Assembly (NCBI GenBank): GCA_963713795.1
Contig: CAVQNC010000010.1
Location: 346,375 to 410,374, forward strand
Length of the DNA: 64,000 bases
Direction of reading: 5' to 3'
DNA from: an uncultured Chloroflexia bacterium
Lineage (GTDB): Bacteria > Chloroflexota > Limnocylindria > Limnocylindrales > CSP1-4
Shown piece by piece: positions 24,746 to 64,000 of this stretch. Within the stretch, counting starts at the first letter, position 1. Each line of letters opens with the position of its first letter. A program made the translations under genes and the position numbers. The notes under the pieces are model-generated. The model did no database searches. It saw nothing but the letters and a program-made list of their open reading frames with translations, and had not been told where the DNA came from.

Positions 24746-24820
24746 GGCGGAGTAGCTCAGTGGTAGAGCAGGGGACTCATAAGCCCTTGGTCACAGGTTC
24801 AAATCCTGTCTCCGCTACCA
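24746..24820 (+). tRNA. tRNA with a CAT anticodon (Met, or possibly Ile2/lysidine), 3' CCA encoded
   Basis: GGCGGAG-TA-GCTCAGTGGTAGAGC...CTCATAA loop...ACAGGTTCAAATCCTGT-CTCCGCT-ACCA, a cloverleaf-compatible sequence. Confidence 0.85.
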
Positions 24821-39821: not shown

Positions 39822-40930
39822 GTGCTAGCGACCCTTCTCTCGGCCACGTTGAACGGCCTGGACGGCTGCCTCATCAGGGTCGAGGTCGACGTGGCTCCCG
39901 GCCTGCCCGGCTTCACGATCGTCGGGCTCGCCGACACCGCCCTGCAGGAAGCCAGGGAACGCGTACGAGGCGCCATCCGGAACAGCGGCTACGAGTACCC
40001 GCCCCGCCGGATCACGGTCAATCTGGCCCCGGCCGAGCTTCGCAAGAGCGGGGCTTCGCTGGATCTCGCCATAGCCCTCGGGATCCTCGTGGGGTCCGAG
40101 CAGGTAGCCGCGATCGGCCGTTGGGCCGTCCTGGGCGAGCTCTCGCTGGGCGGCGAACTGCGCACGGTTCCCGGGCTGCTGCCGATGGTCGCGGCTCTCG
40201 CTCACCGGCGCGTGGGCCGCGTCGTCGTACCGCTCGATGGCCTTGCCGAGGCGAACCTCGCCGGCCGGATCGATGTCGCCGGTGCCGCCTCGCTGGCCGA
40301 AGCCGCGGCCCTGCTGCGCGAACGCCGCGGCCGGGCGCGCAACCTGCCGCCGCGGGTGGAACTCGCTGCCGGCGGCCCCGCTGAAGCCGGATCCTCGGGG
40401 GGCTACCAGGCGGGCGTCATCACTTGCGATCCCGGCCCGGACCTGGCCGAGGTCCGCGGCCAGATGGAGGCCAGGCGGGCCATGGAAGTCGCCCTCTCGG
40501 GAGGGCATTGCATGGTGATGATCGGCCCACCTGGTTCCGGCAAGACGCTCCTGGCCAGAACGGTCCCCGGCATGCTGCCTCCCCTCGACGACGAGGAAGC
40601 GCGACTCGCGACGATCATCGCGTCCGTCTCCGGCTCCGGGTCGCTGACGAAGCTGATCCGGACGCGGCCCTTCAGGTCGCCCCACCACACCATCTCGTAC
40701 GCGGCGATGGTCGGCGGGGGACCTCACCTCTCGCCGGGTGAAGTGACCCGCGCGCACAACGGCGTGCTATTCCTCGATGAGCTGCCCGAGTTCGATCGAA
40801 ACACGCTGGAGGCTCTGCGCCAGCCGCTCGAGGATGGCCAGGTTGCGATCTCCAGGGTCGGGCACTCGGCGGTCTTTCCTTCGCGGTTCCAGTTGATCGC
40901 GGCGATGAACCCGTGCCCGTGCAAGTGGGA
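39822..40930 (+). pseudogene. comM: comM/yifB-type Mg-chelatase-like AAA ATPase, 3'-truncated at the junction with an integrated element
   Basis: YifB N-terminal domain ([20 protein letters not shown]...), Walker [24 protein letters not shown], then AAMNPCPC, after which homology stops and the ORF runs into antisense recombinase sequence. Confidence 0.8.
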
Positions 40931-42483
40931 ACTACACCCGGGAAGCGGTAGGTCACCACGGCCCTGGCGGTCTTCCTGCCGTCTTCGCCGACCGCCGTGT
41001 GGACGATGATCCCGGAGAGGAGCCGGACGATCTCCTGACGCTCCTCGTCGGGTAGTCCCGCGTCCAGTCGCGCCCGGACTTCGGAAAGGAGGTCATGGAC
41101 CTCTTGGGGCACGATCTCGGCGCTGGGAGCCTGTAGCGCGCTCAGGCGGGCTTGCAGGGCGGTGCGCTCCCCACCGATGCGCTCGAGTTGCGACTCGAGT
41201 TCAGGATCGGTCAGGTGGCCCCGAATGCGCAGGTCGATGGCCGTTCGGCGCTCTGACTCCAAGGTCTCCAGGCGACGAGTCAGAGTCACCGCCTCGGCCT
41301 CGGCGATCGCGCCCTGCGCCTCCCGCTCGGCCTGGCCGTCGAGTTGGTCGATCACATCGCCAGGGTTGCGCAGCCAGGCCTCGATGTCGTCCCAGACGGC
41401 CGGCTCGATCCTGTCGGTCCGTACCGACACGCCGAGGCACTTGCCTGGGATCGGTCCACGCTCCACGAGCTGACCGCCGCAGCGATACCAGCCCACGTCC
41501 TTGCTCCAGGAGCCGACGTAGGTCAGGCCGCAGATGCCGCACTTCATCGCACCCTTGAGCAGGTAGTGGCGATCGGTGTTCTTGGCGCAGCGGCGGTTGC
41601 GGGCGAGGGCAGCCTGGGCCTCGTCCCATAGGGCAGGGGAGACCAGGCCTTCGATCGGGGCGACTATGACCTCGCGGTCACGCTTCTTGGTCCGCCGACC
41701 GTACGAGAGCTGGCCTTTGTAGATGGAGCCTCTGACCATGTTGCCGACTAGGCCGGCTCGCCAGATGCTCTGGGTCTTTCGGGCCCTCACGCCGGTCCCT
41801 TCGCGGGCGCACGCGGTCGGAACCCCGAGGTGGTTGAGTTCGGTTGCTGCGCGACGGCAACTCCAGCCCTCTAGAGCAATCCAGCCGTAGATGCGCCGAA
41901 CGACCTCGGCAGCAGACCAGTCGCCCCATATCGGCGTCTCGTCAGGCACGGGGCGGGCGGACCGCTTGATGCCCTCGATCCTGTAGCCGAGAGCTATCAC
42001 CCCGCCCGTGTAGCGGCCCTCCCTGGCCGCCGTGTCCATCCCGTCGGCGCTGCGTTCGTGGAACACTCGGTGCTCGTTCTGGGCGAGGGTGGCGAAGAGA
42101 TCGAACATGAACGGTGTGAGGCGGCCTTCTCGGAGGGTGACGACCGAGACGTTGAGCCCTTCGAGGCGGCGGCCCGTGGCGGCCGTGTCGGCGAGGTTGC
42201 GGCCGAGCCGGTCGAGCTTGTAGAGCCACAGCTCGTCAATCTGTCCCGCCTCGGCTGCGGCCAGGAGCGCTCTCCCGCCGGGTCGATCGGCAAGTGGCTT
42301 GGTACCGGATACGCCATCGTCGCTGAACCTGGCGACGACCTCGACGTCGGGCTCCCGTTCGAGCCAGCGGTCGAGCTGATCGGTTTGGGTCTTGATCGTC
42401 TCGCGCTCGCGTTGGTCGTCGGAGGAGACGCGCTCGTAGGTCGCGACCCGCCGGACTGCCGGAACCCTCGCCGCGAGCTTCAT
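40672..42483 (-). CDS. Large serine recombinase (resolvase catalytic domain, recombinase domain, zinc-ribbon, coiled coil)
   Basis: [14 protein letters not shown]...[13 protein letters not shown] (catalytic Ser region); zinc ribbon [10 protein letters not shown]...YRCGG; coiled coil. The recognisable C-terminus ends near AVVTYRF, and the last 90 codons or so are antisense to comM. Confidence 0.85.
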
Positions 42484-42811
42484 CGGGCACCTCCCTGACC
42501 GCGGTCGGGAAGCTGCCGTGGGAGGCCCAGCACCACCCGGAGGGCAGCCACCATCGTGTCGCGGTCCGGGTCGTATACACGCTCCAAATCGAGGGGTCGT
42601 GCAAGTCGACGACCAAGCCGGGTGGTCAGGCCGTTGGCTCGGGCGGGGCCCAATGGGCGCCGACGGCGGCCAACGGCTCCTTGTCCCTTGGTCGTCGCTC
42701 GCCGCTTAAGAAGCCCCGACACCGCCACAAGCCTCCGCAGACCAGTCGCGCCCGACGGCGCTAACGTGGAAAGCGTCTCAGCAGGTGTAAGGGCTTAGAT
42801 ATGGTGTACGT

Positions 42812-43807: not shown

Positions 43808-44266
43808 GGGGGTTGTCGAGCTAATCCGAACCGAAATCATAGACCCGGGCCCTGGTGCAGCAACCTCGTGCGCGAGTTGTTTTGGCGCTTTTACGCGGGC
43901 CGGATTCTCGGGCCGTCTCGATACGTTAGGCATCTCGGCCACGATTGGGCCGACGTTCGGGTCGATGTGCCCCAAATCGGCCGAGGTGGTCGCGATATGA
44001 GAGGCACTTGCGAGATGTCGAAACTCTCGGGGCTCTCACTGGGAAAATGCGCCGTCTATCTGCGCAATTGACTGTCGGCAGGGACGCCGTCCACTGGGGT
44101 GGCCCGGACGCCGACTCGATCGGCGAGGACCCGGGCGGTCCTTCTCCGGGGCGGCAGGGTTTCGCGAATTGGGTCGCGCCTGCTCACCGGGCATCGCCGC
44201 GGCGAGGCCGGACATCGCGGCTCCGGTCTGAGTTGAACGGCGGCCGAGTCAGTCGTTAATGGGAGC

Positions 44267-44989
44267 TTGCTACGATCGCGAACGATGGGCCTGAACAGTC
44301 TCGAGGTTGTCAGCGCGACTCTCGAGGCCCGCAGACCGGCCGAAGTTGAAAGGGTGGTCTCGCCCATGAGCCTCGCATCTGTTCGACTGGAGGCGGAGGG
44401 CTGCCAACGCTGCCCGCTTGAGCAGAGCCGCTGCAAGGTCGTCTTCGGGGGCGTGAACGGCTACCGCGGCATCCGGGCCGACTTGATGCTCGTGGGCGAG
44501 GGTCCCGGCGCGGAGGAAGACGCCCAAGGGCTCCCGTTCGTAGGGGCCGCCGGCAAGTCACTCGAGGCGTTGCTGGAGCAATCCGGGATGGACCGGAAGA
44601 CTGCCTACATCACCAACGTTGTCAAATGCCGTCCGATCACGCGCCAGGACGGGCAACCGCCGACCAACCGGGCGCCCGCTCCCAGAGAGATCGCGGCCTG
44701 CTGGGAGTATCTGCAGTCCCAGATCAGCCTGGTCCGCCCGCGCGTGATCGTCGCTCTGGGTGTAACCGCTGTCGTACGCCTTCTGGGCCCGGGATCTCAG
44801 GTTGGGACCAGCCGCGGCCCTGGGCACTTCCACGACCTGGTCCCGGTGGTTGCCACCTACCATCCATCGCCCTCCTCGCTCAACCGGCGAGCTGGCCGGC
44901 GCGAGAGGGTTGTCGAGGACCTCAGGCTGGCCAAGCGCCTCCTGGATACGCCTGAGGAAGCGCTGCCCCGGACCGTTGGCGGGATGTAG
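44267..44989 (+). CDS. Family-4 uracil-DNA glycosylase (Fe-S type)
   Basis: CQRCPL...LMLVGEGPGAEEDAQGLPFVGAAGKSL...ITNVVKCRP; the start may be an internal Met. Confidence 0.8.
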   Translation: MLRSRTMGLNSLEVVSATLEARRPAEVERVVSPMSLASVRLEAEGCQRCPLEQSRCKVVFGGVNGYRGIRADLMLVGEGPGAEEDAQGLPFVGAAGKSLEALLEQSGMDRKTAYITNVVKCRPITRQDGQPPTNRAPAPREIAACWEYLQSQISLVRPRVIVALGVTAVVRLLGPGSQVGTSRGPGHFHDLVPVVATYHPSPSSLNRRAGRRERVVEDLRLAKRLLDTPEEALPRTVGGM

Positions 44990-45249
44990 CGACGGTCGCC
45001 GCGGGACAGGCAGGTTCAACACGACGGCGGGCGTCAGGAGCGGTCGGGCGACCACCGGACTCGACGGTTCTCCTGGGGCCCGAGCGATTGCCCTTCTCGA
45101 TCAAGAAGGCGTAGAGGGCCTGGTCCCAGACCGACGGGTCTCCGCTGGTCAGGGCGGGGAGGGGTTGAGCGGTCATCGCGGGCGCCTTGTGTGCGAATTG
45201 GTCGTCGTTTTGACTCACTCACCCTGGCGGCAATAGCAACACCATCGAA

Positions 45250-46060
45250 ACGTCGTGGGCGGGAAAACACTCCGGAGTCCTACCGCCTCGAAGGTGGCGG
45301 CCGGCACGGTCCCGACGGCGGGTCGGGGTACAAAACCCGAGGTTCTCGACTGCAAGTGGGCATCGTCTGGGGCAGCGGAATGGCCGGTTCGGTTCGACCA
45401 TGGTCGTGTTCGCCTCCGGGTCGGGGATGGTGGTCCGGATCTTGCGCCGTCGGACGACGGCCGGCGAGGCCGCGCAGCGCCATGAGGCGGGCCACACGCT
45501 TTCGCCGACGCCCTCTCCTTCGCGGGCCAGGGCGGCGGTGATCCGCGGTGAGCCGTATGTGGCGCGACTCTTGGCGTGGATCTCGACGATCTTGGCCTCG
45601 AGCTTCGCGTCCTCGAGGGCACGAGGGCCCGGGTGGTGGTGATGCCAGCCATAGAAGGCGGAGCGAGAGACCTCCATCAGAGCGCAGGCAGATGCCACGT
45701 TGCGCTCTGCGACCTTCTCCGCCTCGATGAACGGGTAGACGCTCATCGGGTCTCGCGGGCGAAGAAAGCCGCTGCTCGCTTCAGGATGTCGCGCTCCTCG
45801 CGCAGGGTCCTGTTCTCGCGCCGCAGGCGGGCGAGCTCCTCGCGCTCGGCGCTTGTCAGACCTTCGCGGCGGCCGGCGTCGATCTCGGCCTGGGCGACCC
45901 AGCGGCGGACCGCGGTCTCGGACAGATCGAGGTCTTGGCCACCGCGCCGACCGAACGCTCGCCGCTGCGGCAGAGCTCGACGACCTGGGCCTTGTACTCG
46001 TCGGGGAACGACCGTCTCGGTCGTCGCTGCTGTTCCATGACCACCATGATGAACATCCTT
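45250..46060 (-). pseudogene. IS3-family insertion sequence remnant: orfA with an internal 1-nt deletion; orfB frameshifted and truncated before the DDE domain
   Basis: orfA RRSFPDEYKAQVVELCRSGERSVGAVAK|DLDLSETAVRRWV (frame break); slippery-site-like junction ...RASSGFLRPRDPMSVYPFIEAEKV...AFYGWHHH...TYGSPRITAAL, then further frame breaks and no rve domain. Confidence 0.75.
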
Positions 46061-46449
46061 TCCCGGCCTGTTCGGCCGATGTCAGATGTCCGTCAAAGCG
46101 GGGCAATGCCCGGCGAAGCAGGGGTCGAGCCCCCGCATTTCGGGCACGGGTACATGGTCAACTCGGTCTTTGACATGCGACCTCCTCCCGATCTTGTAGC
46201 TCAACCCAGACCCACCCCAGTCTAGCGGGGTCAAACCATCTAACTGAGCCCGTCTCGGTAGCCTCTCCACGCTCAAAGCACGTCGGTATGACCCGGATGA
46301 CTTCGGATCAGGTGATGTGTCGCTGTCACCATCACCCGATCGTGGCGGACTGCCGTGGCGACGAACTCGCGCTACAGTTGCTTGGACGCTAGGCGACTGT
46401 CAAACTCCCATTGCCTGGGCACTACCGCCGCTGGTGAGATGACCGCTGG

Positions 46450-47757
46450 TTGGCGCTTACGCCACATCGCCGATGGGGGAGCCAGCAGATGACGATCCAT
46501 TCTCGAGCCGCACGGGACATCGAGGGGTGCAGCATGGGTCTCTTAGGACGGCGCCGCAGGCCGTTCTCTCGGGCGGTCCGCTTGAGCTTGGCGGGTCTCC
46601 TGGTAGCCCTGGCCGTCACGGGCTGCTCGGGAAGCTCGACGATGGCGTCACCGACAGGCAGTGGGACTGCGATACCGCTGGCGACCCTGACCCCGACCCC
46701 GACCCCGACCCCGACGCCGACTCCCACCGCTTCGCCGAAACCCGCGCCCGGTTTCAGCGTTACCGGTTCCATGACCGCCAATCGCGAGGGGGCCACCGCG
46801 ACGCTGCTCTCCGACGACCGGGTGCTTGTCACAGGCGGGGAGGACATAACGAACTCGTTCGCACCTTTCGCTTCAGCTGAGCTATATGACCCCAAGACCG
46901 GCACCTTCAGCGCGACCGGCTCGATGAGCACCGTCCGTGTCAATCACACGGCCACGTTGCTATCCGACGGCCGAGTCCTCATCGCGGGCGGCCGCGTCAA
47001 GTTTGACGCGCCTGCGCCGCTCGCCTCAGCTGAGCTGTTTGACCCCAAGACCGGCACCTTCAGCGCCACCGGCTCGATGGTCGCGGGGCGCTCCGGCAGC
47101 ACCGCTACGCTGCTCTCAGACAGCCGCGTCCTCATCACGGGCGGCGGAGGGCTCTCCTCGGCCGAGCTGTACGATCCGACGACCGGCAAGTTCTCGTCAA
47201 CCGGCCCCATGAGTACCGTTCGCGACCTGGACACTGCGACTCGGCTCTCCGACGGTCGCGTCCTCGTCGCGGGTGGCGAGAGCCGTAGTCAGGAAGGGCT
47301 TGCGTCAGCCGAGCTCTATGATCCGTCGACCGGTAAGTTCGGTCCGACCGGGTCGATGACAGCCGGTCGCGAGCAGTACACGGCGACTCTGCTAGCCGAC
47401 GGCCGAGTCCTGATGGCGGGAGGCTTGGATTCGAAACGCAAGGTTCTCGCATCGACGCAGCTGTACAACCCGGCAACCGGCAAGTTCAGTCCGAGTGGCT
47501 CCATGGCCGGAGGCCGTTTCGGTGACACCGCCACACTGCTGCCCGACGGACGGGTCCTCGTCGCAGGCGGGCTGAAAGACACGACGACAGGTGTAGCAAT
47601 CGCCACTGCCGAGCTATATGACCCGACTTCCGGCACATTTAGCTCGATCGGACCAATGGCTGAAGCTCGTGTCGTACAGACGTCGACCCTGCTATCGGAC
47701 GGTCGAGTATTGATCGCGGGCGGCCGAACTACGTCAGCCGAGCTATATCAGTCGTAG
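46450..47757 (+). CDS. Kelch/beta-propeller repeat lipoprotein with a PT-rich linker
   Basis: Lipobox LAVTGCSGS; (PT)n linker; at least 8 repeats of TATLLSDGRVL(I/V)AGG...ASAELYDP.TG.F...GSM. Confidence 0.7.
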   Translation: MALTPHRRWGSQQMTIHSRAARDIEGCSMGLLGRRRRPFSRAVRLSLAGLLVALAVTGCSGSSTMASPTGSGTAIPLATLTPTPTPTPTPTPTASPKPAPGFSVTGSMTANREGATATLLSDDRVLVTGGEDITNSFAPFASAELYDPKTGTFSATGSMSTVRVNHTATLLSDGRVLIAGGRVKFDAPAPLASAELFDPKTGTFSATGSMVAGRSGSTATLLSDSRVLITGGGGLSSAELYDPTTGKFSSTGPMSTVRDLDTATRLSDGRVLVAGGESRSQEGLASAELYDPSTGKFGPTGSMTAGREQYTATLLADGRVLMAGGLDSKRKVLASTQLYNPATGKFSPSGSMAGGRFGDTATLLPDGRVLVAGGLKDTTTGVAIATAELYDPTSGTFSSIGPMAEARVVQTSTLLSDGRVLIAGGRTTSAELYQS

Positions 47758-49033: not shown

Positions 49034-50173
49034 ATGGACCCAGGCGGCGACGATGCCTTCACCGATCTCGGTGACTGGCTGGTCGAGGATGCTCAAGGGC
49101 TCGCGCCGTTAGCCCCAGGTGATGTCATCCACATCCTGCGGTCGGAGGAGCTGTGGGCCTTCGAGAGCACGTCCGGAGAGCTGCTCGGCTCGTACTCACG
49201 ACGCGCGAGCCGAGGGCCCTCACCACGAAATCACCTCGTAGCCTGCAACGTTTCGAATGGCAGCTACCTGCGCCTCGAGCACCTTTCGCCGGACATGAAC
49301 GAGACTCCAATCGCATCGCCATTCGACGAGGCGTCTTCATCCCCGGTTGAAGTCGATCCTCGGAAGCCGATCAGGGACTCTATTGAGGCGCGGACGATGG
49401 AAGGCGTTCTGCCGAATGAAGCTGCTGAGGCTCTTCGTCCGGTGTTAGCGCCGGCCGAGACGATCCGAGCCTCTTTTCCTGGTCCATCTGGCTCAGCTGT
49501 CGTAGTCTCGGATCGCCGCGTCTTCGTGTTCAAACGCCTCATTGGCAAGGGGGCAATGCGCGCCTGGCCACTTGCTTCGGTAATCGACGTGTCGGTGCGC
49601 CCGAACCCGCCCCACAGCATTGCCCTCCTGGTGGTCGAGATTGTCGGCGACGCAAAGAAGCCGGAGATACTGAGCCCCAACGTGATGGCAATCCCCGGCC
49701 GCGGCTACGAACCAATGCTTGCGGCGCTTCGTCAGGCTGTCGTCGAAGGTCAGTCGCTGGCAGCGAGTCGGGGTGTCGAGATCCATGGTGGGGAGCTTTC
49801 GGCCCTCACCCACGGCTGGACGGTGACCGCGGTCACGCGCACGTACGAAGGCAGCGAAGCCGGCAGGCGCATGCTGGCGGCAGAGACCCAGGTTCTTGGG
49901 TTGCACGGCTACGTCCCTGCGAGTCAGAGTCAGGACGGAGGGCACATCCACGCGGGCCGCATTCTGATGACGGGAGGTCTGAGCGTGCTGGCCGGCAGCG
50001 CCGGCACGCGCTCCAAAGGGTCGATCATTGTGAGCTTTCACCGACCGCCGGCAGTTGCTGGGCCGATCGACATACCAGATCAAATTCGGAAGCTGGCCGA
50101 CCTCCGCGACGCGGGGGTCCTCACGTCGGCCGAGTTCGATGCCAAGAAGCGAGAACTCCTGAGGCGGATGTAG
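49034..50173 (+). CDS. Hypothetical protein with a C-terminal SHOCT domain
   Basis: C-terminus IRKLADLRDAGVLTSAEFDAKKRELL matches the SHOCT consensus. Confidence 0.45.
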   Translation: MDPGGDDAFTDLGDWLVEDAQGLAPLAPGDVIHILRSEELWAFESTSGELLGSYSRRASRGPSPRNHLVACNVSNGSYLRLEHLSPDMNETPIASPFDEASSSPVEVDPRKPIRDSIEARTMEGVLPNEAAEALRPVLAPAETIRASFPGPSGSAVVVSDRRVFVFKRLIGKGAMRAWPLASVIDVSVRPNPPHSIALLVVEIVGDAKKPEILSPNVMAIPGRGYEPMLAALRQAVVEGQSLAASRGVEIHGGELSALTHGWTVTAVTRTYEGSEAGRRMLAAETQVLGLHGYVPASQSQDGGHIHAGRILMTGGLSVLAGSAGTRSKGSIIVSFHRPPAVAGPIDIPDQIRKLADLRDAGVLTSAEFDAKKRELLRRM

Positions 50174-51990: not shown

Positions 51991-53583
51991 TTGACCTTCT
52001 CGCGCGACCAGACTCAGGGGGACTCCCACATGCTGACCGGCCAACTCCGCAGCCAGATCGACCGCATCTGGGACGCCTTCTGGTCCGGCGGCATCTCCAA
52101 CCCGCTCGAGGTCATCGAGCAGATCACCTACCTGCTCTTCCTGCGCCGGCTGGACGACCTGCAGACGCTGGAGGAGAACAAGTCCGCCCGGCTCAAGCAG
52201 CCGATGGAGCGCCGCATCTTCCCCGAGGGCAAGGACGCCAAGCGGCCGCCCCTACGAGGACCTGCGCTGGTCGCGCTTCAAGAACTTCGCCCCGGCCGAG
52301 ATGTACGCCGTCGTGAGCGAGCACGTCTTCCCGTTCCTGCGCACGCTGGGCGGCGACGAGTCCACCTACGCCCACCACATGAAGGACGCGCGCTTCACCA
52401 TCCCCACGCCGGCGCTGCTGGCCAAGGTGGTGGACCTGCTCGACGACGTGCCGATGGAGGACCGCGACACCAAGGGCGACCTCTACGAGTACATGCTCGG
52501 CAAGATCGCCACCGCCGGGCAGAACGGCCAGTTCCGCACGCCCCGCCACATCATCCGGCTGATGGTGGAGATGACCGCGCCGCAGCCGACCGACATCATC
52601 TGCGACCCGGCCTGCGGCACGGCCGGCTTCCTGGTCGCGGCGGGCGAGTACCTGCGCGAGCGCCACCCGAGCCTGCTGCACGACGCGAAGCTGCAGCGAG
52701 CACTTCCACCACGGCATGTTCCACGGCTTCGACTTCGACAACACCATGCTCCGCATCGGCAGCATGAACATGCTGCTGCACGGCGTCGAGAACCCGGACA
52801 TCCGCTACCGCGACTCGCTGGCGCAGGACCACGCCGGCCGACGAAGAGGCCTACACGCTGGTCCTCGCCAATCCGCCCTTCGCCGGCAGCCTCGACTACG
52901 AGAACACCGCCAAGGATCTGCTGCGATCGTCAAGACCAAGAAGACCGAGCTGCTCTTCCTGGCGCTCTTCCTGCGCCTGCTCAAGCCCGGCGGCCGCGCC
53001 GCGGTCATCGTGCCCGACGGCGTGCTGTTCGGCTCGAGCAAGGCGCACAAGGACGCTGCGGCGGATGCTGGTCGAGGAGCAGAAGCTCGACGCCGTGGTG
53101 TCGCTGCCCGAGCGGCGTGTTCCGGCCCTACGCCGGCGTCTCGACCGCGATCCTGCTCTTCACCAAGACCAACTCCGGCGGCACCGACCAGGTCTGGTTC
53201 TACGACGTCGAGGCCGACGGCTGGAGCCTCGACGACAAGCGCACGCCGCTGCTGTCCGAAGACAAGCTCGGCCCGGTGCCGACGCACGGCGCTCACCGCC
53301 GAAGAGCACGCCAAGAACAACCTGCCCGACGTGCTGGCGCGCTGGGCCGCAGCGCGACGGCGCCGAGCGCGAGCGCCCGCGCACCGCCCAGAGCTTCTGC
53401 GTCCCCAAGGCCGACATCGCCGCCCAGGGCTACGACCTCTCGCCTCAACCGCTACAAGGAAGTGGTCCACGAGGAGGTCGAGCACCGCGCGCCGCAAGGA
53501 GATCCTCGCCGACCTCGCGAAGCTGGAGGAGGAGATCCAGCAGGGGATGAAGGAGTTGGAGGGCGATGCTGAAGTGATACTCT
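51991..53583 (+). pseudogene. hsdM: Type I restriction-modification methyltransferase subunit HsdM, disrupted by multiple single-nucleotide frameshifts
   Basis: HsdM N-terminus LRSQIDRIWDAFWSGGISNPLEVIEQITYLLFLRRLDD; FRTPRHIIRLMVEM; motif I DPACGTAGFL; motif IV LANPPFAGS; these are spread over at least 4 reading frames. Confidence 0.8.
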
Positions 53584-53989
53584 CGAAGCTGTCGATCTGG
53601 CTGGCGCATTATCCGACTCGGTCGGCTCAGATGATGTCGTGGCAGCTTCTCGACAGCCTGCGACGGCCAGTAACCGATTCGATCGTCGGCCCGGGCCATA
53701 TCCGTACACGGCAGCAAGTGGCCAGCAACGTGGACGATCGATGACTTCCTGTTCGATGAGCCGCTCGCGATCTGCTTGCGGAGGACGGCGGACATTTCGA
53801 TAGCCTGACAGAGGCATTGCTTACCGGATATCGGGCAAGACCTGGGTCGCCAACCATGCACATGTCCTACGCCCGAAGCCGGCAAATGAAGCTTGCGTTC
53901 CTGTGTCGCGTTCTGCGAGCAACTCATGACGTAACGCCGTTCGTAACCGGAACAACTCGGGGCAAGCTCATCGCAAGCTGGAGCCGAGA

Positions 53990-55551: not shown

Positions 55552-58500
55552 GTGTGTCCACTCGAACCGGGCGGGGCTGACGTGAGCCAGTTCGCCTTCC
55601 TCCAGCGCGAATGGCCGGCTGTGTTCGAGGCCGCGGCCAGGGCCGAGGCGGCGGTGCATCCGGACCCGCGGGCGGCCTGCTTCTACGCCCGGCGGGCGCT
55701 CGAGCTGGCGGTGGCGTGGGCATACAAGCACGACGCCGCGCTGCGGCTGCCCTACCAGGACAACCTCTCGGCGCTGATCCACGAGCCGACCTTCAAGCTG
55801 GCTGCGGGCGAGGCGGTCTTCAACAAGGCGCGCGTGATCAACACGCTCGGCAATCGCGCCGTCCACAGCCACAACGCGATCCCGCGGACGACGCGCTGGC
55901 GGCGGTGCGCGAGCTGTTCCATGTCTGCTACTGGCTCGCCCGCACCTACGCGCGCGAGGCGCGACCGGCGCCGGACCTGGCCTTCGACCCCGGCGCTCTG
56001 CCGAGGACGCGCTCGTCCCGAAGCAGACCGCCGAGCAGCTGCAGCAGCTCGAGGCCGCGCTGCGCGAGCGCGACGAGAAGCTCGCCGTCGCTGCTGGCCG
56101 ACGAGACCGCGCTCGACGAGGAGCTGAAGCGCCTGCGCGCCAGGTGGCCGAGGCCAAGAAGGCCGCGGCGGCGCAGCCCGACACGCACGACTATTCGAAG
56201 CCGAGACGCGCGACTACTTCATCGATCTGCTGCTCAAGGAAGCGGGCTGGCCGCTGCGACCAGGCGCGCGATCGGGAGTTCGAAGTCGCCGGCATGCCCA
56301 ACACCCAGGAGCAAGGGCTTCGTCGACTACGTGCTCTGGGGCGACGACGGCAAGCCGCTCGGCCTGGTCGAAGCCAAGCGCACGCGGCGCGACCCGCGCG
56401 TGGGCCAGCAGCAGGCCAAGCTCTACGCCGACTGCCTGGAGCGCCAGTTCGGCCAGCGCCCGGTGATCTTCTACTCCAACGGCTACGAGCACTGGATCTG
56501 GGACGACACGAGCTATCCGCCGCGCCGGGTCCAGGGCTTCTACAAGAAGGCCGAGCTGGAGCTGCTGATCCAGCGCCGAGCCAGCCGCAAGCCCCTCGCC
56601 TCGGCCGAGATCAACGGCGCGATCGTCGAGCGCTACTACCAGACGCGCGGCCATCCGCCGCATCGCCGAGGCCTTCGAGCGCGACCACGACCGCAAGGCG
56701 CTGCTGGTCATGGCCACCGGCGCGGGCAAGACCCGCACGGTCATCGCGCTGTGCGACCTGCTGATGCGCTGCAACTGGGCCAAGCGCGTGCTGTTCCTCG
56801 CGGACCGCGTCGCGCTGGTCAAGCAGGCGGTGAACGCCTTCAAGCGCCACCTGCCGGACTGCGTCGCCGGTGAACCTGGTCACCGAGAAGCGACGCCGAG
56901 GGCCGCGTCTTCGTCTCCACCTATCCGACGATGATGGGGCTGATCGACGAGACGGCGGACGGCCAGCGGCGCTTCGGCGCCGGCCATTTCGATCTCGTGA
57001 TCATCGACGAGGCGCACCGCTCGGTCTTCCAGAAGTACCGCGCCATCTTCGACTACTTCGACTCGCTGCTGGTCGGCCTGACGGCGACGCCCAAGGACGA
57101 GATCGACCGCAACACCTACAGCCTGTTCGACCTCGAAAACGGCGTGCCGACCGACGCCTACTCGCTCGAAGAGGCGGTGCGCGACGGCTTCCTCGTGCCG
57201 CCGAAGGCCGTGTCGGTGCCGCTCAAGTTCCAGCGCGAGGGCATCAGGTACGACGAGCTGTCCGAGGACGAGAAGGACCAGTGGGACGCGCTCGAGTGGG
57301 ACGAGGAGGGCGACGGTCCCGGACCGCGTCGAGGCCGCGGCGCGTCAACAAGTGGCTGTTCAACAAGGACACGGTGGACAAGGTGCTGGCGCACCTGATG
57401 ACCCGCGGCCTGACGGTCGCCGGCGGCGACCGCCTGGGCAAGACGATCATCTTCGCCAAGAACCAGGACCACGCCGAGTTCATCGCCGAGCGCTTCAACG
57501 CCAACTACCCGCACTACCAGCGGCGAGTTCGCCCGCGTCATCACCTTCAAGACCGAGTACGCCCAGAGCCTGATCGACGACTTCTCGAACAAGGAGCAAG
57601 GCGCCGCACATCGCCATCTCGGTGGACATGCTCGACACCGGCATCGACATCCCCGAGGTCGTGAACCTGGTCTTCTTCAAGCTGGTGCGCTCGAAGACCA
57701 AGTTCTGGCAGATGCTCGGCCGCGGCACGCGCCTCTGCCCGGACCTGTTCGGGCCGGGCAAGGACAAGGAGTTGCTTCCAGCTCTTCGACTACTGCCGGA
57801 ACCTGGAGTTCTTCAGCCAGAACCCGGAGACGACCGAGGGCGCGGCTGGGCGAGTCGCTGGGCAAGCGGCTGTTCGTGACGCGGCTGGAGCTGGTCGAGG
57901 AGCTGGACAAGCGCGTGGGCGCCGGTCGCCGGCCCGGCGGCCGCGGCGACAGCCATGGCGCCCTACGGCGACCCGACGACCGAGGCGGAGGTGCGCGGCG
58001 CGCTCGGCCGAGTCGCTGCATCGCGAAGTGGCCGCGATGAACCTGGACAACTTCGTCGTCCGGCCGCAGCGGCGGCTCGTCGAGAAGTACGCCAAGCCCG
58101 AGGCCTGGGCGTCGTTGTCGCGCGAGGCGCTCGCGCGAGCTGGCGCACGAGGTCGCCGGCCTGCCGGCGGAGCTGGACGCGGAGGCCGAAGAGGCCAAGC
58201 GGTTCGACCTGCTGATCCTCAACCTGCAGCTGGCGCTGCTCCGATCCGAGCCCGGCTTCGAGCGACTGCGCGATCAGGTCAAGGCCATCGCCGGCCTGCT
58301 GGAGGAGAAGTCCGCCATCCCGATGGTCCGGGCCCAGATGGCGCTGATCCAGGACGTCCAGACCGACGAGTGGTGGGTCAGGACGTCACCGTCCCGATGC
58401 TGGAGCTGGTTCGCCGCCGCCTGCGCGATCTGGCCAAGCTGATCGAGAAGCAGAAGCGCCGCGTCGTCTTCGCCGACTTCGAGGACGAGATGGGCGCCGA

Positions 58501-59011
58501 GGAGCGGGTCGATCTGCCCGGCCTCGCCGCCGGCTGGGACTTCGAGAAGTTCCGCGCCAAGGCGCAGGTCTTCCTGCGCGAGCACCAGGATCACGTCGCC
58601 ATCCGGAAGCTGCGGATGAACAAGCCGCTGACGGCCGGCGACCTGGCCGAACTGGAGCGCATGCTGGTGGAGAGCGGCGTCGGCGGGCCCGATCAGATCG
58701 ACCGCGCCAAGCAGGAGTCGCACGGCCTCGGCCTGTTCGTCCGTTCGCTGGTCGGCCTGGATCGAGGCGCCGCCAAGGAGGCCCTGGCCGGGTTCCTGTC
58801 GGGCAAGACGCTGGGCGCCAACCAGATCGAGTTCGTCAACCTGATCGTCGACCACCTGACCGAGCACGGCGTCATGCCCGCCGCGCTGCTCTACGAGTCG
58901 CCCTTCACCGACATCACGCCGCGCGGCCCGGACGGCCTCTTCGCCTCGGCCGAGGTGGACGAGCTGATCGCCACGCTTCTGCGGGTCAGGGCCACGGCGG
59001 TCGCGGCCTGA
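55552..59011 (+). pseudogene. hsdR: Type I restriction enzyme R subunit HsdR, disrupted by many frameshifts
   Basis: N-terminal domain FAFLQREWPAVFEAA...; KGFVDYVLWGDDGKPLGLVEAKR; helicase motifs [44 protein letters not shown]; these are distributed over all three forward frames. Confidence 0.8.
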
Positions 59012-59218: not shown

Positions 59219-60028
59219 ATGGGCCTGAGTCATTCTCACGGGGTGGTGACCATCGAGCAGGGGAAGGTCGTCAACGCGACCCATGGGAAGAACCTGGTTA
59301 CTCGCAAGGAGTGGCAGAAGGTAGACCGGATCCCCGTCGCAGGGATCAGGAACGTGTTGGTGCAGAGCCGGGATCGGCTGACGTTTCAGTTCGAGGCGAT
59401 GGACGTGCGAGGCAAGGCAGTCCTGAGCATCGAAGGCTGCACGTCCAAGCCAGAGCTCGACGCCTTCTTCCGTGAGCTTGTCTCTGCCAACCCCAACATC
59501 GTCGTCGAGCTCGCCCATCCCAGCCACGGTCTGACCGATCTCGAACACGAGGCTGCCGAGAAGGAAGCCAAGCGCGCCATCAAGTTCAACGAGGAAGAAG
59601 AGAAGCGACGCAAGGCCGCGTTGGGTCTCCGCCCCGAGGTCAAGGTCAAGATCTACGACAACCACAAGGACTACGAGCACGACGCAAAGAAGATGTCCAA
59701 GGACGGCTGGATGCCGGAAGGTCAGACAGGAGGCCGGGGCGGAGCGTCCCTTGCCGGAACCGGCGCCAAGATCCTCCCCAACTGGCTGGGGCTCGGGGCC
59801 ATCACGGGTTTCAGCCGCAAAGGCGACAAGATCACGGTCACGTGGGTCAAGCAACCGCCGGGCTTTGTCCCAAAGGATTACCTCGATGTGCCCGAGGTAC
59901 CCGCGCCCAGGGTGTTTCCCCACGAACCTATTTCCAGGCACGACTCCTCCAGCCCGTTCAAGCGCGGTCAGGAGTTCTTGGTCGGCTGGGCTCTGCCGGT
60001 AGCGACCCGGACCGTGCCGCGCCTATAA
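59219..60028 (+). CDS. Hypothetical Lys-rich protein
   Basis: 269-aa ORF, compositionally distinct from the flanks (lower GC, K-rich); no motif recognised. Confidence 0.45.
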   Translation: MGLSHSHGVVTIEQGKVVNATHGKNLVTRKEWQKVDRIPVAGIRNVLVQSRDRLTFQFEAMDVRGKAVLSIEGCTSKPELDAFFRELVSANPNIVVELAHPSHGLTDLEHEAAEKEAKRAIKFNEEEEKRRKAALGLRPEVKVKIYDNHKDYEHDAKKMSKDGWMPEGQTGGRGGASLAGTGAKILPNWLGLGAITGFSRKGDKITVTWVKQPPGFVPKDYLDVPEVPAPRVFPHEPISRHDSSSPFKRGQEFLVGWALPVATRTVPRL

Positions 60029-60078
60029 CTCCGGAGCCCACGGCACCTCCGCCCGACCAGTCTGCCGGCGCGCCGGAA

Positions 60079-60186
60079 ATGAGCATTGGGGACAAGCTCC
60101 GCCAACTGGCGGCGCTGCGTGACGACGGGATCATCTCGGCCGAGGAGTTCGAGGCGAAGAAGGCGGAGCTGCTTCGCGCCTTCTAG
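60079..60186 (+). CDS. Stand-alone SHOCT-domain mini-protein (35 aa)
   Basis: MSIGDKLRQLAALRDDGIISAEEFEAKKAELLRAF is essentially a complete SHOCT consensus. Confidence 0.4.
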   Translation: MSIGDKLRQLAALRDDGIISAEEFEAKKAELLRAF

Positions 60187-60338: not shown

Positions 60339-60653
60339 TCAATTCCTGCGAGTTGGGAGACCCCGATTGGTCCTCGATTGCTCCGGCTCAGCTGCGACTC
60401 TGCCGGCCTCCCAAGGGTACGCCCTCCCACATTCTGGACAGTACGGGCTCGGCTGCGCCATAGCAGCGCCAAGCACGAGAACACCCTCGGCGATGTAGTC
60501 GCCTTGAATGGGTTTTCCGCAGCCTTCACAGGCGCTTATCGCTGGCTGCCCGCATTGAGGACAGAATGGCTTGTTGAATTGGGGTCGACTGCCGGCTCGG
60601 TCATTGATGACGTGGCCTGACCGACAGACGACGGCGGTGTCGTAATGTCCCAT
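60339..60653 (-). CDS. Zinc-ribbon protein (two CxxC pairs plus extra Cys/His)
   Basis: CRSGH...CPQCGQ...CEGCGK...CPECGR. Confidence 0.5.
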   Translation of the reverse strand: MGHYDTAVVCRSGHVINDRAGSRPQFNKPFCPQCGQPAISACEGCGKPIQGDYIAEGVLVLGAAMAQPSPYCPECGRAYPWEAGRVAAEPEQSRTNRGLPTRRN

Positions 60654-60722
60654 GACGTTGCCAGCATGCGAGTGGGATACGGCGCATCGGCAGCGGCGTC
60701 ACGAGGGAGGCCAGACAACAGG

Positions 60723-61529
60723 ATGGCGAAGGAGTCTGCGGCAGCCTCTGATGGTGAGGCTCAGGATGTCGCGGCCGAGGCGACGAGCCCGGTGGGGGGT
60801 ACAGACGAAGCCGAGCTACGGGAGTGGCATCGGCGGAATTGTCAGATGTTCGATGCCTTTGGCGCCCAGGTAGCACAGGTGATCAAGGTCGCCCTGCGAG
60901 AAGTTGGCATCCAATTCCAGGACGTGTTCAGCCGCACCAAAGGTGAAGAGAGCTTTCTTGAGAAGGCCAAACACTACGACGACCCTCGGGCGGAGGTTCA
61001 GGACCTCGTTGGATTGCGCGTGATCACCTATTTCAGCGGGGAGATCGACCGCGTTGAGCAGAGGCTAAACGCCCTCTTTGCGGTCGACTCGTCGCTCACC
61101 GCAGACAAGGGTAGTGATCTGGGGCCGGATCGGCTCGGATACCGTGCGCGCCATTTCGTCTGCAGAATTGGACCAGATCGAGAGCAACTCGCCGACTGGA
61201 AGTCGTTCAAGGGGATCCGGTTCGAAGTGCAAGTCACCACTGTCTTGGGGCATGCGTGGTCAGAATTCGAACACGACCGAGGCTACAAATATCGAGGCCA
61301 GCTTCCGCCAGAGCTCGAACGTCGACTTAATCTGGCCGCAGGGCTACTCGAGGTGGCGGACCGTGAACTCGATGCGCTTGCTAAGGAGATCTCAAGGTAT
61401 ACAGCGGAAGTCGCGGAGACGATCGGTCGCCGAGATGGGGCGCTGGCGAAGATCGACTTGAATGCCATCTCTTTGCGTGAGCTCCTGCTGGAACGGCTCC
61501 CTGCCTCGGTCGCGTCCGGCGCGATTTAG
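60723..61529 (+). CDS. RelA/SpoT-domain (small alarmone synthetase/toxSAS-like) nucleotidyltransferase
   Basis: DLVGLRVITYF, YRARHFVCR, EVQVTTVLGHAWSEFEHD, the RSD synthetase motifs with catalytic D/G/R and E.Q residues present; the likely start is MAKESAAA (the track start at 60645 would overlap the divergent gene). Confidence 0.7.
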   Translation: MAKESAAASDGEAQDVAAEATSPVGGTDEAELREWHRRNCQMFDAFGAQVAQVIKVALREVGIQFQDVFSRTKGEESFLEKAKHYDDPRAEVQDLVGLRVITYFSGEIDRVEQRLNALFAVDSSLTADKGSDLGPDRLGYRARHFVCRIGPDREQLADWKSFKGIRFEVQVTTVLGHAWSEFEHDRGYKYRGQLPPELERRLNLAAGLLEVADRELDALAKEISRYTAEVAETIGRRDGALAKIDLNAISLRELLLERLPASVASGAI

Positions 61530-61606
61530 CCGGATTCCTCGAGCCCGGACTCCTCGGAGTTGGCCTGTCCGAACTCCGGGCGTTTGGCGTCCGGACGCTC
61601 GACCAG

Positions 61607-61849
61607 GTGGCCGACCTCATCCCGGCTTCCTACGACAAGCTTCACTCGACGATCATCTCGGGAAACACTCTAATCGGCGTCGTGCGCGATCTGATGATGA
61701 TTGCCGACGCTGATCGGTACTTCGCGGTGGCCTGGAGAAACTCATGGCATGGTTGGCTGCCGGACAACCTAGTTCTTCTGCGCAAGTTTCATATCGATAC
61801 GACTGGGCTCCTGAAGCGGTATGGCTTGTTCATCGACAGCGAAACGTAA
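61607..61849 (+). CDS. Small hypothetical ORF downstream of the RelA/SpoT gene
   Basis: 80-aa ORF with unusually low GC; no motif recognised. Confidence 0.25.
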   Translation: MADLIPASYDKLHSTIISGNTLIGVVRDLMMIADADRYFAVAWRNSWHGWLPDNLVLLRKFHIDTTGLLKRYGLFIDSET

Positions 61850-62399: not shown

Positions 62400-62882
62400 G
62401 TGGCTCGAAGGACACCCGCGGAGTTAGTGGAGGCTCGAAAGGCTGCGGCGGCAGCACGAGCCGAGGAAGCGAGAGCCCAGGCTGAGGCGGAAGATAAAGC
62501 AGAGCGCGAGCTCAGGGCCTACAACGAGCGGCTGCGAACGAGTCGAGAGAAGCACCGGCAGCTTGTCAGCGCGGCCGACGGGATATACGACGAGATCGAC
62601 AAGCTCAGTCGGAAGTGGCCGACCGTTCCAGTAACCGAGCGGATGGTCGCCAGAACGAACAAGGTGCTAACCGAGACCAGGGCACTGTTCGCGGACGAGC
62701 CGGACATGTTCATCGATGGTCTCGACGACATCGTGTCCGCGGGCAATCCACCGGAAACACGCGATGTGGTGCTGATCCTGCGCGAAGCCAGGGATGCATT
62801 GACCCGGTACGAAGCTAAGTACGACGCGGATTGGGCCGAGATGGCCGAGCACGACGACGACGAGGACGACGAGGACGATTAG
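62400..62882 (+). CDS. Hypothetical coiled-coil protein with an acidic tail
   Basis: Ala/Glu/Arg-rich N-terminal helix, DDDEDDEDD terminus; stop abuts the next start. Confidence 0.4.
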   Translation: MARRTPAELVEARKAAAAARAEEARAQAEAEDKAERELRAYNERLRTSREKHRQLVSAADGIYDEIDKLSRKWPTVPVTERMVARTNKVLTETRALFADEPDMFIDGLDDIVSAGNPPETRDVVLILREARDALTRYEAKYDADWAEMAEHDDDEDDEDD

Positions 62883-63860
62883 TTGTCCGCCTCGCCAGCG
62901 CACCTCCCTCTACCGGCTGGGTTTGGCCTCCCGCTGAGCCAGGCCGAAGCCGACTTTGTCATCCCGGATCTTGCGTGCGACATTCCGGTTTGCATTGACC
63001 CCTTCTTGCTCTACAAGAGTCGGGACGAGGGGCTGCGCACGCTGCATGACCAGCTCCTGGCCGTCTTCCGCCACGGCTTCTCGCTCTACGAAGCAGGCGA
63101 TCGGAAGAGTCTCAACCGTCTGATCGACTTCCCGGAGGTGAATGCAATTGGCTTCGGCTACACGATCGGTGGCATCGGTGGCAGCGGACTTGGCTGGCAC
63201 CTTAATCAGCTCGTAGTCGATCTGCTCGAGTCAAGCGAAGAGGTCCGGACAAGGGGCCTCAGACATGTCGAAGAGCTACAACTCCTCTCGGTCGGGGTTG
63301 GCCCCGATCGGGTGAGCGACATCGCCGCTGGAGTGCTGAAGATCTCGCTCGTCGACTACACGCAGCGGCAAGCGGCGCTCTGGCACATTCCGATCACAGC
63401 CGGGGTCCCGCTAAACCACTACCTGGACCTCGAGGACATGGAGTGGCGCGACGGGTACTTCGACCTGCCCGTCAATCCGTTAAGCGGTAAAGCCTTGCTC
63501 CTCGTCCCTCGCCGGATCGTCCGGCTCCTGCCCTGGATCAACTACCAGGACTTCTACGGCAACGAGGCCAAGCTCCTCCTGCCGCCGCAGCCGCGGCTTC
63601 CTCGCTACCCAGGCATGAGCGCTGTCAAGCGCTACGAGATCGCCAAGACGGAACTCGTGCAGAAGGTGCGGCAGAGACCTGCCGTCTTTGAGCAGTACGT
63701 GGGCCGAAAAGAGCATGAGGCGTGGAAGGCGGAACCTTTGCTGCCGGACACCCAGGCGGAAGAGGAGCTACGCGCGACCGGCGCGGACCTGCGAAAACAA
63801 GCTCAAGGCTCTTCCAACCGGCGTCGCCGCAGCGGCGGACTACCAGCGACTCGTCTATGA
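62883..63860 (+). CDS. Hypothetical protein, probably continuing in another frame past 63800 to the window edge
   Basis: 325-aa ORF; downstream sequence continues coding-like in the +1 frame (YQRLVYEILNFLFEPELTGGDLEVSTYMGTERRDIIYWNE...). Confidence 0.4.
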   Translation: MSASPAHLPLPAGFGLPLSQAEADFVIPDLACDIPVCIDPFLLYKSRDEGLRTLHDQLLAVFRHGFSLYEAGDRKSLNRLIDFPEVNAIGFGYTIGGIGGSGLGWHLNQLVVDLLESSEEVRTRGLRHVEELQLLSVGVGPDRVSDIAAGVLKISLVDYTQRQAALWHIPITAGVPLNHYLDLEDMEWRDGYFDLPVNPLSGKALLLVPRRIVRLLPWINYQDFYGNEAKLLLPPQPRLPRYPGMSAVKRYEIAKTELVQKVRQRPAVFEQYVGRKEHEAWKAEPLLPDTQAEEELRATGADLRKQAQGSSNRRRRSGGLPATRL

Positions 63861-64000
63861 GATCCTCAACTTCCTCTTTGAACCCGAGCTGACCGGTGGG
63901 GACCTTGAGGTCAGCACCTACATGGGCACGGAGCGCCGCGACATCATCTACTGGAACGAGGCCGAGCACTCGTTCTGGAATACGTACGCGACACCTACAA

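Follow-up and report, generated by a model that had tools for sequence, protein, structure and literature searches.

The window, a stretch of 64,000 nucleotides from contig CAVQNC010000010.1 of an uncultured Chloroflexia bacterium, carries near its end a zinc-ribbon gene and, back to back with it, a gene with a RelA/SpoT synthetase domain (RSD), which is followed by a small open reading frame (ORF) of 80 amino acids (aa). The locus raises the question of what this divergent pair and the small ORF encode, and whether they still work as a toxin-antitoxin or abortive-infection module. As judged from its sequence, the locus represents an uncharacterised variation on the theme of the small alarmone synthetase (SAS), with a DUF2321 partner, and this copy is pseudogenised. 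We consider it fairly probable that the copy belongs to a small, mobile module of two genes, an uncharacterised defence-type alarmone-synthetase module, and was inactivated recently.

The enzyme gene and the 80-aa reading frame

The plus-strand ORF with the RSD spans 60645..61529, and ATG 60723 is the likely enzyme start, since it lies 8-10 nt past a GGGAGG conserved in three related loci. The 268-aa product from this start is identical to the database protein P0001. The original prediction, made from the letters of the window and their ORF translations, had implicitly taken this product of roughly 270 aa for a whole and functional enzyme. However, the closest relatives of the enzyme are 333-382 aa long, i.e., longer by ~100 aa, and the fragment aligns to residues 1-268 of the 374-aa relative P0002. 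The 268-aa protein is thus the truncated product of a ~375-aa gene that carries two disabling lesions. The codon at 61527-61529 is TAG in the window only, reading CGG in L091, CAG in L001, GAA in L090, and CTG in L089. Furthermore, one base between 61565 and 61566 is missing in the window only when the DNA is aligned with these four relatives, and the three-frame translation passes there from frame 0 to frame +2. Owing to the stop and the 1-nt deletion relative to all homologues, the window holds no intact translatable enzyme gene. The two lesions are 36 nt apart, both in a linker of the C-terminal domain that has lower confidence in the structural model described below, and the catalytic domain lies wholly upstream of both.

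The 80-aa ORF (61607..61849) had been proposed as a separate gene that could serve as an antitoxin or sensor. It lies in a plus-strand frame different from that of the 268-aa ORF and has no match in Pfam, NCBIfam, or PADLOC. It matches the last ~80 residues of the intact homologues residue for residue (P0002: ...AGLIPASYDKLHSAIISGNTVIGVVRDLMMIADADRYF...), and where the C-terminus of the 374-aa P0002 reads ...AGLIPASYDKLHSAIISGNTVIGVVRDLMMIADADRYFEEAWRKSWHGWLPDNLVLLRKF..., the ORF begins with MADLIPASYDKLHSTIISGNTLIGVVRDLMMIADADRYFAVAWRNSWHGWLPDNLVLLRKF.... When the stop was skipped and one base was restored, the repaired reading of the window aligned end to end with P0002 at 83% identity, and the orphaned 3' part aligned to P0002 residues ~280-374 at 85% identity. 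On these alignments, the 80-aa ORF belongs to the enzyme gene, as its detached C-terminus, and is not a gene of its own; its candidacy as an antitoxin or sensor was rejected for that reason. The G+C content of the 80-aa ORF was 0.55 and that of the same part of the intact L091 homologue was 0.56; since the low G+C content is common to both, it is a property of the gene itself rather than a sign of a separate origin. The ratio of nonsynonymous to synonymous substitution rates (dN/dS), measured against the L091 orthologue at a dS of ~0.6, was 0.17 in the 5' part of the gene and 0.13 in its orphaned 3' part. The low ratio of the orphaned tail indicates that it was under selection for most of the divergence and that the inactivation is recent.

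The lesions are very likely to reflect genuine decay. If they were assembly or sequencing errors instead, the organism would have an intact ~375-aa gene and a complete module, and several features would fit such an origin: the deletion is the contraction of a C-run (GCCCTG to GCCTG) at a short distance from the stop, the dN/dS downstream is as low as that upstream, the sequence is on record in one assembly only, and several further frameshifts lie within the same 12 kb. Nevertheless, the first 45 kb of the window contains ORFs that run uninterrupted for up to 1159 aa and meet at normal operon junctions, whereas broken genes are concentrated in the low-G+C island, so that sequencing errors would have to be island-specific, and one of the two lesions is a base substitution to TAG rather than an indel. 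Moreover, a second, independent remnant of the enzyme gene (P0008) was found in L089, at 7746-8666 of a 30-kb metagenome contig. This remnant is truncated at its 5' end: approximately the first 135 codons are missing, among them those of the two foremost catalytic motifs. A MatE transporter gene directly adjoins it, and no gene for a zinc ribbon lies close by. Decay of the enzyme gene therefore does occur, and we regard an artefactual origin of the lesions as unlikely.

It may also be asked whether the split locus works in its present form. In that case, the 268-aa protein would be a constitutively active toxic SAS, checked in trans by the zinc ribbon and/or by the 80-aa fragment translated from GTG 61607, and the whole would form a toxin-antitoxin or abortive-infection system. 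The fragment does retain the entire region that aligns to full-length RelQ (residues 65-229 against RelQ 39-199 of 209), purifying selection acts on the zinc-ribbon gene, which is intact, and both neighbours had been put forward as an antitoxin or sensor. However, two independent lesions point to decay and not to an engineered split, GTG 61607 has no evident ribosome-binding site ahead of it, and the enzyme is one continuous protein in all five other close-clade lineages that carry the whole gene. In addition, the neighbouring defence genes are broken as well, and a conserved upstream hexamer is mutated: the window reads CAGCAT at 60662-60667, ~55 nt upstream of the enzyme start, where L091, L001, and L090 read TAGTAT (alignment A3). 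Since a scan of the window locus and of L091 found no sigma-70 promoter or terminator in either, the hexamer can be read as no more than a putative -10 element, and its change may represent a promoter loss that accompanied the coding lesions. A working split system thus appears very unlikely. In the favoured reading of a recently inactivated copy, the module would no longer work as designed, and at most a 268-aa catalytic fragment would be made.

Catalytic core and C-terminal domain of the enzyme

The enzyme ORF matched PF04607 (RelA_SpoT) with an E value of 6.3e-13 (49.4 bits against a cutoff of 27), as the original prediction had led us to expect. The motifs DLVGLRV, GYRARH, and EVQVTTVLGHAWSEFEHD are present, as are the family-wide motifs R-x-K-x3-S, D-x2-G-x-R, G-Y-R-x2-H, E-x-Q, H-A-W, and H-D-x2-Y-K. 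D94, G97, R99, G139, Y140, Q170, H177, W179, H184, Y188, and K189 are invariant in alignment A1, in which E168 is near-invariant (at least 90%), and the same catalytic columns are conserved in the 51-sequence alignment A2. The catalytic residues are therefore retained rather than lost, and no hydrolase (HD) domain was found in the window enzyme ORF. The description of the enzyme as synthetase-only held for the motifs and for the missing hydrolase, but not for the supposed lack of a regulatory domain, since the intact homologues carry a helical C-terminal domain of ~140 aa.

The subfamilies of toxic SAS (toxSAS) were compared by running the family profile against solved structures, which serves as a proxy for subfamily hidden Markov models (HMMs). 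Among all PDB sequences, the RelQ type came first (3e-22, 82 bits) and RelP second (6e-19 to 8e-15). CapRel was the only characterised toxSAS with a significant match (2.4e-5, 27 bits); the long RelA/SpoT homologues gave 3e-4 or worse, and FaRel2 gave 0.68 (12 bits). On the sequence comparison, RelQ/RelP are much nearer relatives of the catalytic domain than CapRel or FaRel2. Since the core is much closer to RelQ/RelP than to the tRNA-modifying toxSAS, the acceptor is more likely a purine nucleotide than tRNA. The closest catalytic domains, in sequence as well as in fold, are those of the RelQ/RelP enzymes, such as Bacillus subtilis YjbM/SAS1 (5DEC/5F2V), YwaC/SAS2 (6FGK), and Staphylococcus aureus RelP (6EWZ). 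In NCBIfam, the top match was the GTP diphosphokinase YjbM model NF053588, with 52 bits against a cutoff of 320.

In PADLOC, the enzyme and its homologues matched one model only, the single-gene defence candidate PDC-S33, with E values of 1e-10 to 1e-16. For the window protein and six intact homologues, the match was confined to profile positions 33-175 of 349. Since only this catalytic half matched, and the C-terminal half of PDC-S33 was unmatched in any homologue, membership in PDC-S33 was rejected. A wider profile search found the catalytic domain also in ~335-aa "GTP pyrophosphokinase" proteins and in ~600-aa DUF429-RSD fusions of Actinobacteria, both of which are without the C-terminal domain seen here. 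The fusions, in which DUF429 (a predicted RNase H-like nuclease) is joined to a related RSD, occur in many Actinobacteria (proteins P0020-P0123), and in L007 a separate DUF429 gene stands two genes upstream of the RSD gene.

An AlphaFold2 model of P0002 (predicted local distance difference test [pLDDT] 88.8; predicted template-modelling score [pTM] 0.81) consists of an RSD fold at residues 28-186, a 40-residue helix at 195-234, and an all-helical domain at 237-366. In Foldseek searches with this model, RelQ/RelP structures came out on top (E 1e-9; template-modelling score 0.70-0.78 on the target). CapRel (7ZTB) ranked 38th, with a root-mean-square deviation (rmsd) of 14.5 Å and coverage of the catalytic domain only. 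The C-terminal domain was also modelled alone (pLDDT 85.4); a PDB search with its model gave no match at E<1 (best E 1.8) and did not return 7ZTB or 9ERV, and a BFVD search gave no match (best E 0.5). On the models, the ~140-aa helical domain is thus without a recognisable fold relative at this search sensitivity. A CapRel-like pseudo-zinc-finger in the C-terminal domain was also considered and was rejected by Foldseek with the whole model as well as with the domain alone, the BFVD search being empty too.

These comparisons bear on whether the intact enzyme could be a fused toxin-antitoxin of the CapRel kind, which would pyrophosphorylate tRNA 3' ends and whose C-terminal domain would act as both the antitoxin and the sensor of a phage protein. 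CapRel of Salmonella phage SJ46 (PMC9712102) is, like the intact homologues of the window enzyme, a chain of ~370 aa with an N-terminal synthetase and a C-terminal non-catalytic domain; both occur in mobile or defence contexts (prophages and defence islands), and its profile match is the significant one among the toxSAS. However, its pseudo-zinc-finger domain bears no similarity to the C-terminal domain of the present family, the full-length superposition (rmsd ~14 Å) held for the catalytic domain only, and the catalytic domain scored higher against RelQ (82 bits) than against CapRel (27 bits). In addition, CapRel needs no second gene, whereas the clade of the window has a divergent zinc-ribbon gene. 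A CapRel-like mode of action therefore seems improbable to us, and the favoured reading keeps a RelQ/RelP-type core with a private C-terminal domain.

The zinc-ribbon gene and the mobility of the pair

The 104-aa product of the divergent gene matched DUF2321 (PF10083) with an E value of 4e-24 (85.4 bits against a cutoff of 24). The original prediction of a back-to-back zinc ribbon was correct in the fold and in the orientation; of the four CxxC motifs it had counted, three are present (C31xxC34, C42xxC45, and C72xxC75), and the fourth ligand pair is C10-x3-H14. C10, H14, C31, C34, C42, C45, C72, C75, and W81 are invariant among the orthologues. The protein covers positions 2-86 of the 157 of the profile, as all orthologues of the clade do, and a truncation to half of the Pfam profile was rejected because orthologues beside intact enzymes are equally long. 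The L091 orthologue, which stands beside an intact enzyme gene, is 91% identical and of equal length (104 aa), indicating that the window gene is full length, and the dN/dS between the two is 0.10, as expected under purifying selection. In the window, L091, L001, L090, and L197, a variable linker is followed by the conserved basic motif [TS][NS]RG-x-P-x-RR (for example TNRGLPTRRN, TSRGTPARRNRGR, and TNRGNPARRKRS), which, from its sequence, could be a short binding peptide.

The divergent pair was found in five lineages: the window, L091 (enzyme P0002), L001-L005/L009/L159 (P0003), L090 (P0004), and L197 (P0005). The zinc-ribbon gene adjoins the enzyme gene in every lineage whose enzyme is at least 64% identical; in L091, it had been missed by the published gene call and was recovered by HMM and ORF listing. 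The zinc ribbons are 64-91% and the enzymes 64-83% identical to those of the window, and these parallel ranges suggest that the two diverge in step. The pair is always divergent, with a spacer of 67-73 bp where the gene starts are reliable, a zinc ribbon of ~105-112 aa, and an intact enzyme of ~375 aa. When the window was compared with L001-L005 and L090 by tblastx (L091 being too short for its flanks to be tested), the similarity ended at ~60325 and ~61885. Therefore, the two genes travel together into unrelated contexts, and with unrelated flanks across the five lineages, the pair behaves as a mobile unit. The G+C content of the module is 0.55-0.61, against 0.69 for the window backbone, and the L091 copy has the same G+C content.

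These data also bear on whether the enzyme is an ordinary housekeeping SAS of the RelQ/RelP kind, serving the stringent response of the host, with the zinc ribbon as a mere syntenic neighbour. RelQ and RelP were best by sequence and by fold, and the YjbM model was the top match in NCBIfam. However, the YjbM score was far below its cutoff, and the RelQ/RelP enzymes are single-domain proteins of ~210-230 aa that are conserved in Firmicutes chromosomes, whereas the proteins of the present family also have a long helix and a helical domain of 140 aa. A single-sequence search among 5.8 billion proteins scored no more than 13 relatives at E<=1e-3, and in GTDB a single species genome had an enzyme of >45% identity. 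This rare and patchy distribution indicates that the enzyme is not a lineage-wide housekeeping SAS of the chromosome, which had been named as an outcome that would undo the original prediction. Unlike RelQ/RelP, the family also has a G+C content atypical of the host and occurs in prophages and defence islands, with the zinc-ribbon partner in one clade. Furthermore, the flanks differ in every lineage with enough sequence to compare, and the gene is dispensable enough to be broken both in the window and in L089. Single-domain layout, a score above the equivalog cutoff, and lineage-wide chromosomal conservation are thus all absent, and a housekeeping role is extremely unlikely.

The association of DUF2321 with an RSD did not extend beyond this clade. 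The original prediction had named the co-occurrence of the zinc ribbon with RSD genes as a check; the two co-occur in the five lineages, but no general pairing was seen. In a metagenome scan with a narrow zinc-ribbon alignment, only 1 of 38 loci with relatives of the window zinc ribbon had an RSD gene (L159, 71% identical), and the idea of DUF2321 as a general RSD partner was rejected on account of the other 37. Outside the close clade, DUF2321 stood beside an RSD in 0 of 80 GTDB loci and 0 of 66 viral loci, and no close relatives of the zinc ribbon were found in IMG/VR. DUF2321 itself comprises 1,574 clusters at 50% identity (E<=1e-3); its members are typically ~160 aa long and carry variable N- or C-terminal extensions without a Pfam match. 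The genes within 2 kb of other DUF2321 genes are varied and often related to defence or mobility, including type I HsdR, DNA methylase, reverse transcriptase, CAP12-type TIR, PRTase-CE, Abi_C, DUF7380/DUF4209, and IS1595 transposase; the first three of these adjoined a DUF2321 gene. No sequence relative of DUF2321 was detectable among solved structures, and a literature search on DUF2321, PDC-S33, and toxSAS with a zinc ribbon returned nothing relevant and, among the papers searched, no described function of DUF2321.

Possible function of the module and its genomic setting

In the favoured reading, the first gene of the module would encode a zinc-ribbon protein with the N-terminal domain of DUF2321 and a conserved basic tail. 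The second, divergent and ~70 bp away, would encode a RelQ/RelP-type SAS core, a long helix, and a private all-helical C-terminal domain of ~140 aa. From its closer likeness to RelQ/RelP than to the tRNA-modifying toxSAS, the intact enzyme would move pyrophosphate from ATP to a purine nucleotide, making alarmones of the (p)ppGpp or (pp)pApp type, and this output would arrest the growth of an infected or stressed cell. RSD enzymes are generally controlled at the ATP donor site (PMC11782079). The C-terminal domain would keep the enzyme inactive until it is triggered; this picture of an autoinhibitory or sensing domain is borrowed from fused CapRel (PMC9712102) and is an analogy, not a homology.

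The zinc-ribbon protein could act on the enzyme as a regulator, sensor, or neutraliser specific to this clade. It may neutralise the enzyme, since zinc-finger-like (pZFD) domains neutralise translation-targeting toxSAS (PMC11782079) and provide a conceptual precedent for a zinc-binding partner. It may also control transcription from the common 70-bp region. Thirdly, it may be a sensor that switches the enzyme on, following the pattern of PANGU type I, which consists of the YejK-like nucleoid protein Pag1A and the GRel SAS Pag1B, and in which the DNA-binding partner turns an inactive, non-toxic SAS into a pppGpp producer (bioRxiv 10.64898/2026.04.06.716658). PANGU type I is a workable model for a zinc-ribbon sensor with a RelQ-like effector, although the likeness drawn is one of two-gene logic: the PANGU partner belongs to the YejK family and its genes form an operon, whereas the partner here is a divergent zinc ribbon. 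The bicistronic toxSAS FaRel, FaRel2, PhRel, and PhRel2 (PMC7229694, PMC11782079) likewise combine an RSD enzyme with a small neighbouring gene. However, known toxSAS modules are co-directional, often overlapping bi- or tricistronic operons with the antitoxin gene (PMC7229694), whereas the sole conserved neighbour here is divergent and the downstream "ORF" belongs to the enzyme gene; moreover, FaRel2 is barely detectable by the family profile. The locus does not qualify as a demonstrable toxSAS toxin-antitoxin module. A toxin-antitoxin function of the intact form would be plausible, and the divergent order and the basic tail seem slightly more in keeping with a regulator or sensor than with a classical antitoxin that is co-transcribed. 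A bolder proposal, that the intact module constitutes a hitherto undescribed anti-phage or stress system of two components with DUF2321 as the sensor or switch, a RelQ-like synthetase, and a gating helical C-terminal domain, and that DUF2321 is a portable sensor or regulator used with different effectors in defence islands, is tentative and in our view rather doubtful.

Several observations weigh against the reading as a recently inactivated defence-type module. A signalling enzyme without toxicity would likewise be close to RelQ/RelP, and a divergent orientation is atypical of toxin-antitoxin pairs. Both lesions are contained in 40 bp, one of them is a C-run contraction, and the sequence on record comes from a single assembly. 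The zinc ribbon is absent from all relatives at <=50% identity, and DUF2321 mostly stands without an RSD, as in the 37 of 38 metagenome loci above, so that the role of the zinc ribbon may be peripheral. Furthermore, the enzymes of the same architecture in L010, L011, and L013 (Rhodopseudomonas sp., Bradyrhizobium erythrophlei, and a Xanthobacteraceae metagenome-assembled genome, all alpha-proteobacterial) lie directly downstream of, and co-directional with, an ORF of ~1300 aa for a class II (B12-dependent) ribonucleotide reductase, which was confirmed by Pfam in L010 and L013. Such a placement looks chromosomal rather than mobile, and the adjacency may reflect a connection with nucleotide metabolism or insertion at a conserved site.

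More generally, enzymes with the same C-terminal domain at 30-50% identity had no DUF2321 neighbour. In IMG/VR, 66 contigs encode relatives of the enzyme, ~14 of them with this C-terminal domain, and in PHROG, P0002 matched phrog_9640 (3e-45) and the zinc ribbon phrog_16447 (2e-18). On the viral contigs, the same-architecture enzymes stood next to DUF4062, an SDH-type protease, NOV_C, and a Zot-like protein. P0015, a protein of 380 aa with the same architecture and 41% identity (JGI 3300043313), starts 49 nt after a CAP12/Pycsar-type TIR gene on the same strand, whose product has 475 aa. A single partner common to all same-architecture enzymes was sought among these neighbours (class II ribonucleotide reductase, DUF4062, SDH protease, NOV_C, Zot, and CAP12-TIR), and none was found.

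For this genome, the locus carries little weight, being a dead copy and one more decayed gene in an eroding defence island. The intact relatives form a small unstudied branch of the RelA/SpoT enzymes, with a RelQ-like core, a C-terminal domain without a recognisable fold relative, and, in one clade, a tightly linked DUF2321 gene. A defined partner enzyme gives a concrete way into the function of DUF2321, and the intact relatives likewise offer access to RelQ-like effectors of defence islands. The branch also bears on whether alarmone-synthetase effectors outside the known toxSAS are neutralised by their partner, as in toxin-antitoxin logic, or activated by it, as in the sensor-effector logic of PANGU.

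The features of the locus and its surroundings are listed in Table 1. The original prediction had placed the pair inside an island beside a dead restriction-modification (R-M) system, and the location was borne out: the decayed type I R-M system, with fragmented hsdM and hsdR, lies immediately upstream of the module, and a pair similar to PDC-M36B/A lies immediately downstream.

Table 1. Positions of the module and of the island features in the window
Feature	Position	Strand	Remark
Large serine recombinase (Resolvase + Recombinase + Zn_ribbon_recom)	40672..42483	-	
IS3-like HTH_21 remnant	45219..46106	-	
hsdM pieces, at least 3 ORFs	HsdM_N 51991..52767; N6_Mtase halves 52301..53572, 52716..53744		
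hsdR pieces, at least 4	HSDR_N 55611..56873; ResIII 56931..57398; Helicase_C 57622..57879; EcoEI_R_C 58028..59011		
Zinc-ribbon gene, 104 aa	60339..60653	-	DUF2321 N-terminal domain only and short basic tail; appears intact
Divergent intergenic region, 69 bp	60654..60722	.	Conserved GGGAGG ribosome-binding site before ATG 60723 (alignment A3)
Enzyme gene, 5' part, 268 codons	60723..61529	+	PF04607; whole catalytic domain, long helix, and first helices of the C-terminal domain; ends at premature TAG
Premature in-frame stop TAG	61527..61529	+	Sense codon in homologues (DNA alignment A8)
1-nt deletion site, GCC-CTG to GCCTG	61565..61566	+	Gap in the window row only (DNA alignment A8)
Enzyme gene, 3' remnant, other frame	61566..61849	+	Last ~94 codons of the C-terminal domain and stop; contains the 80-aa ORF 61607..61849
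PADLOC PDC-M36B	62400..62882		E 9e-12
PADLOC PDC-M36A	62883..63860		E 6.5e-42, profile positions 12-225 of 457

The PDC-M36A match resumes in another frame at 63790-63999 (profile positions 287-350) and runs off the end of the window, and the gene appears frameshifted near 63.79 kb. The G+C content falls from ~0.69 to ~0.65 beyond 46 kb, and the region 40672-46106 with this drop is probably the edge of an integrated island.

Some further genes of the window were noted. A 269-aa ORF at 59219..60028 has no family match, and its 3' end is overlapped in another frame by a 114-aa ORF (59842..60186) that ends in a SHOCT domain (E 2.5e-10); the overlapping ORFs may be another frameshifted gene. A second SHOCT protein, encoded at 49034..50173, is not a paralogue of the 59842..60186 product. 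The island also contains the gene of a 435-aa Kelch-repeat beta-propeller protein at 46450-47757. The sole tRNA gene of the window, a tRNA-Met (CAT) at 24746..24820, lies far from the island.

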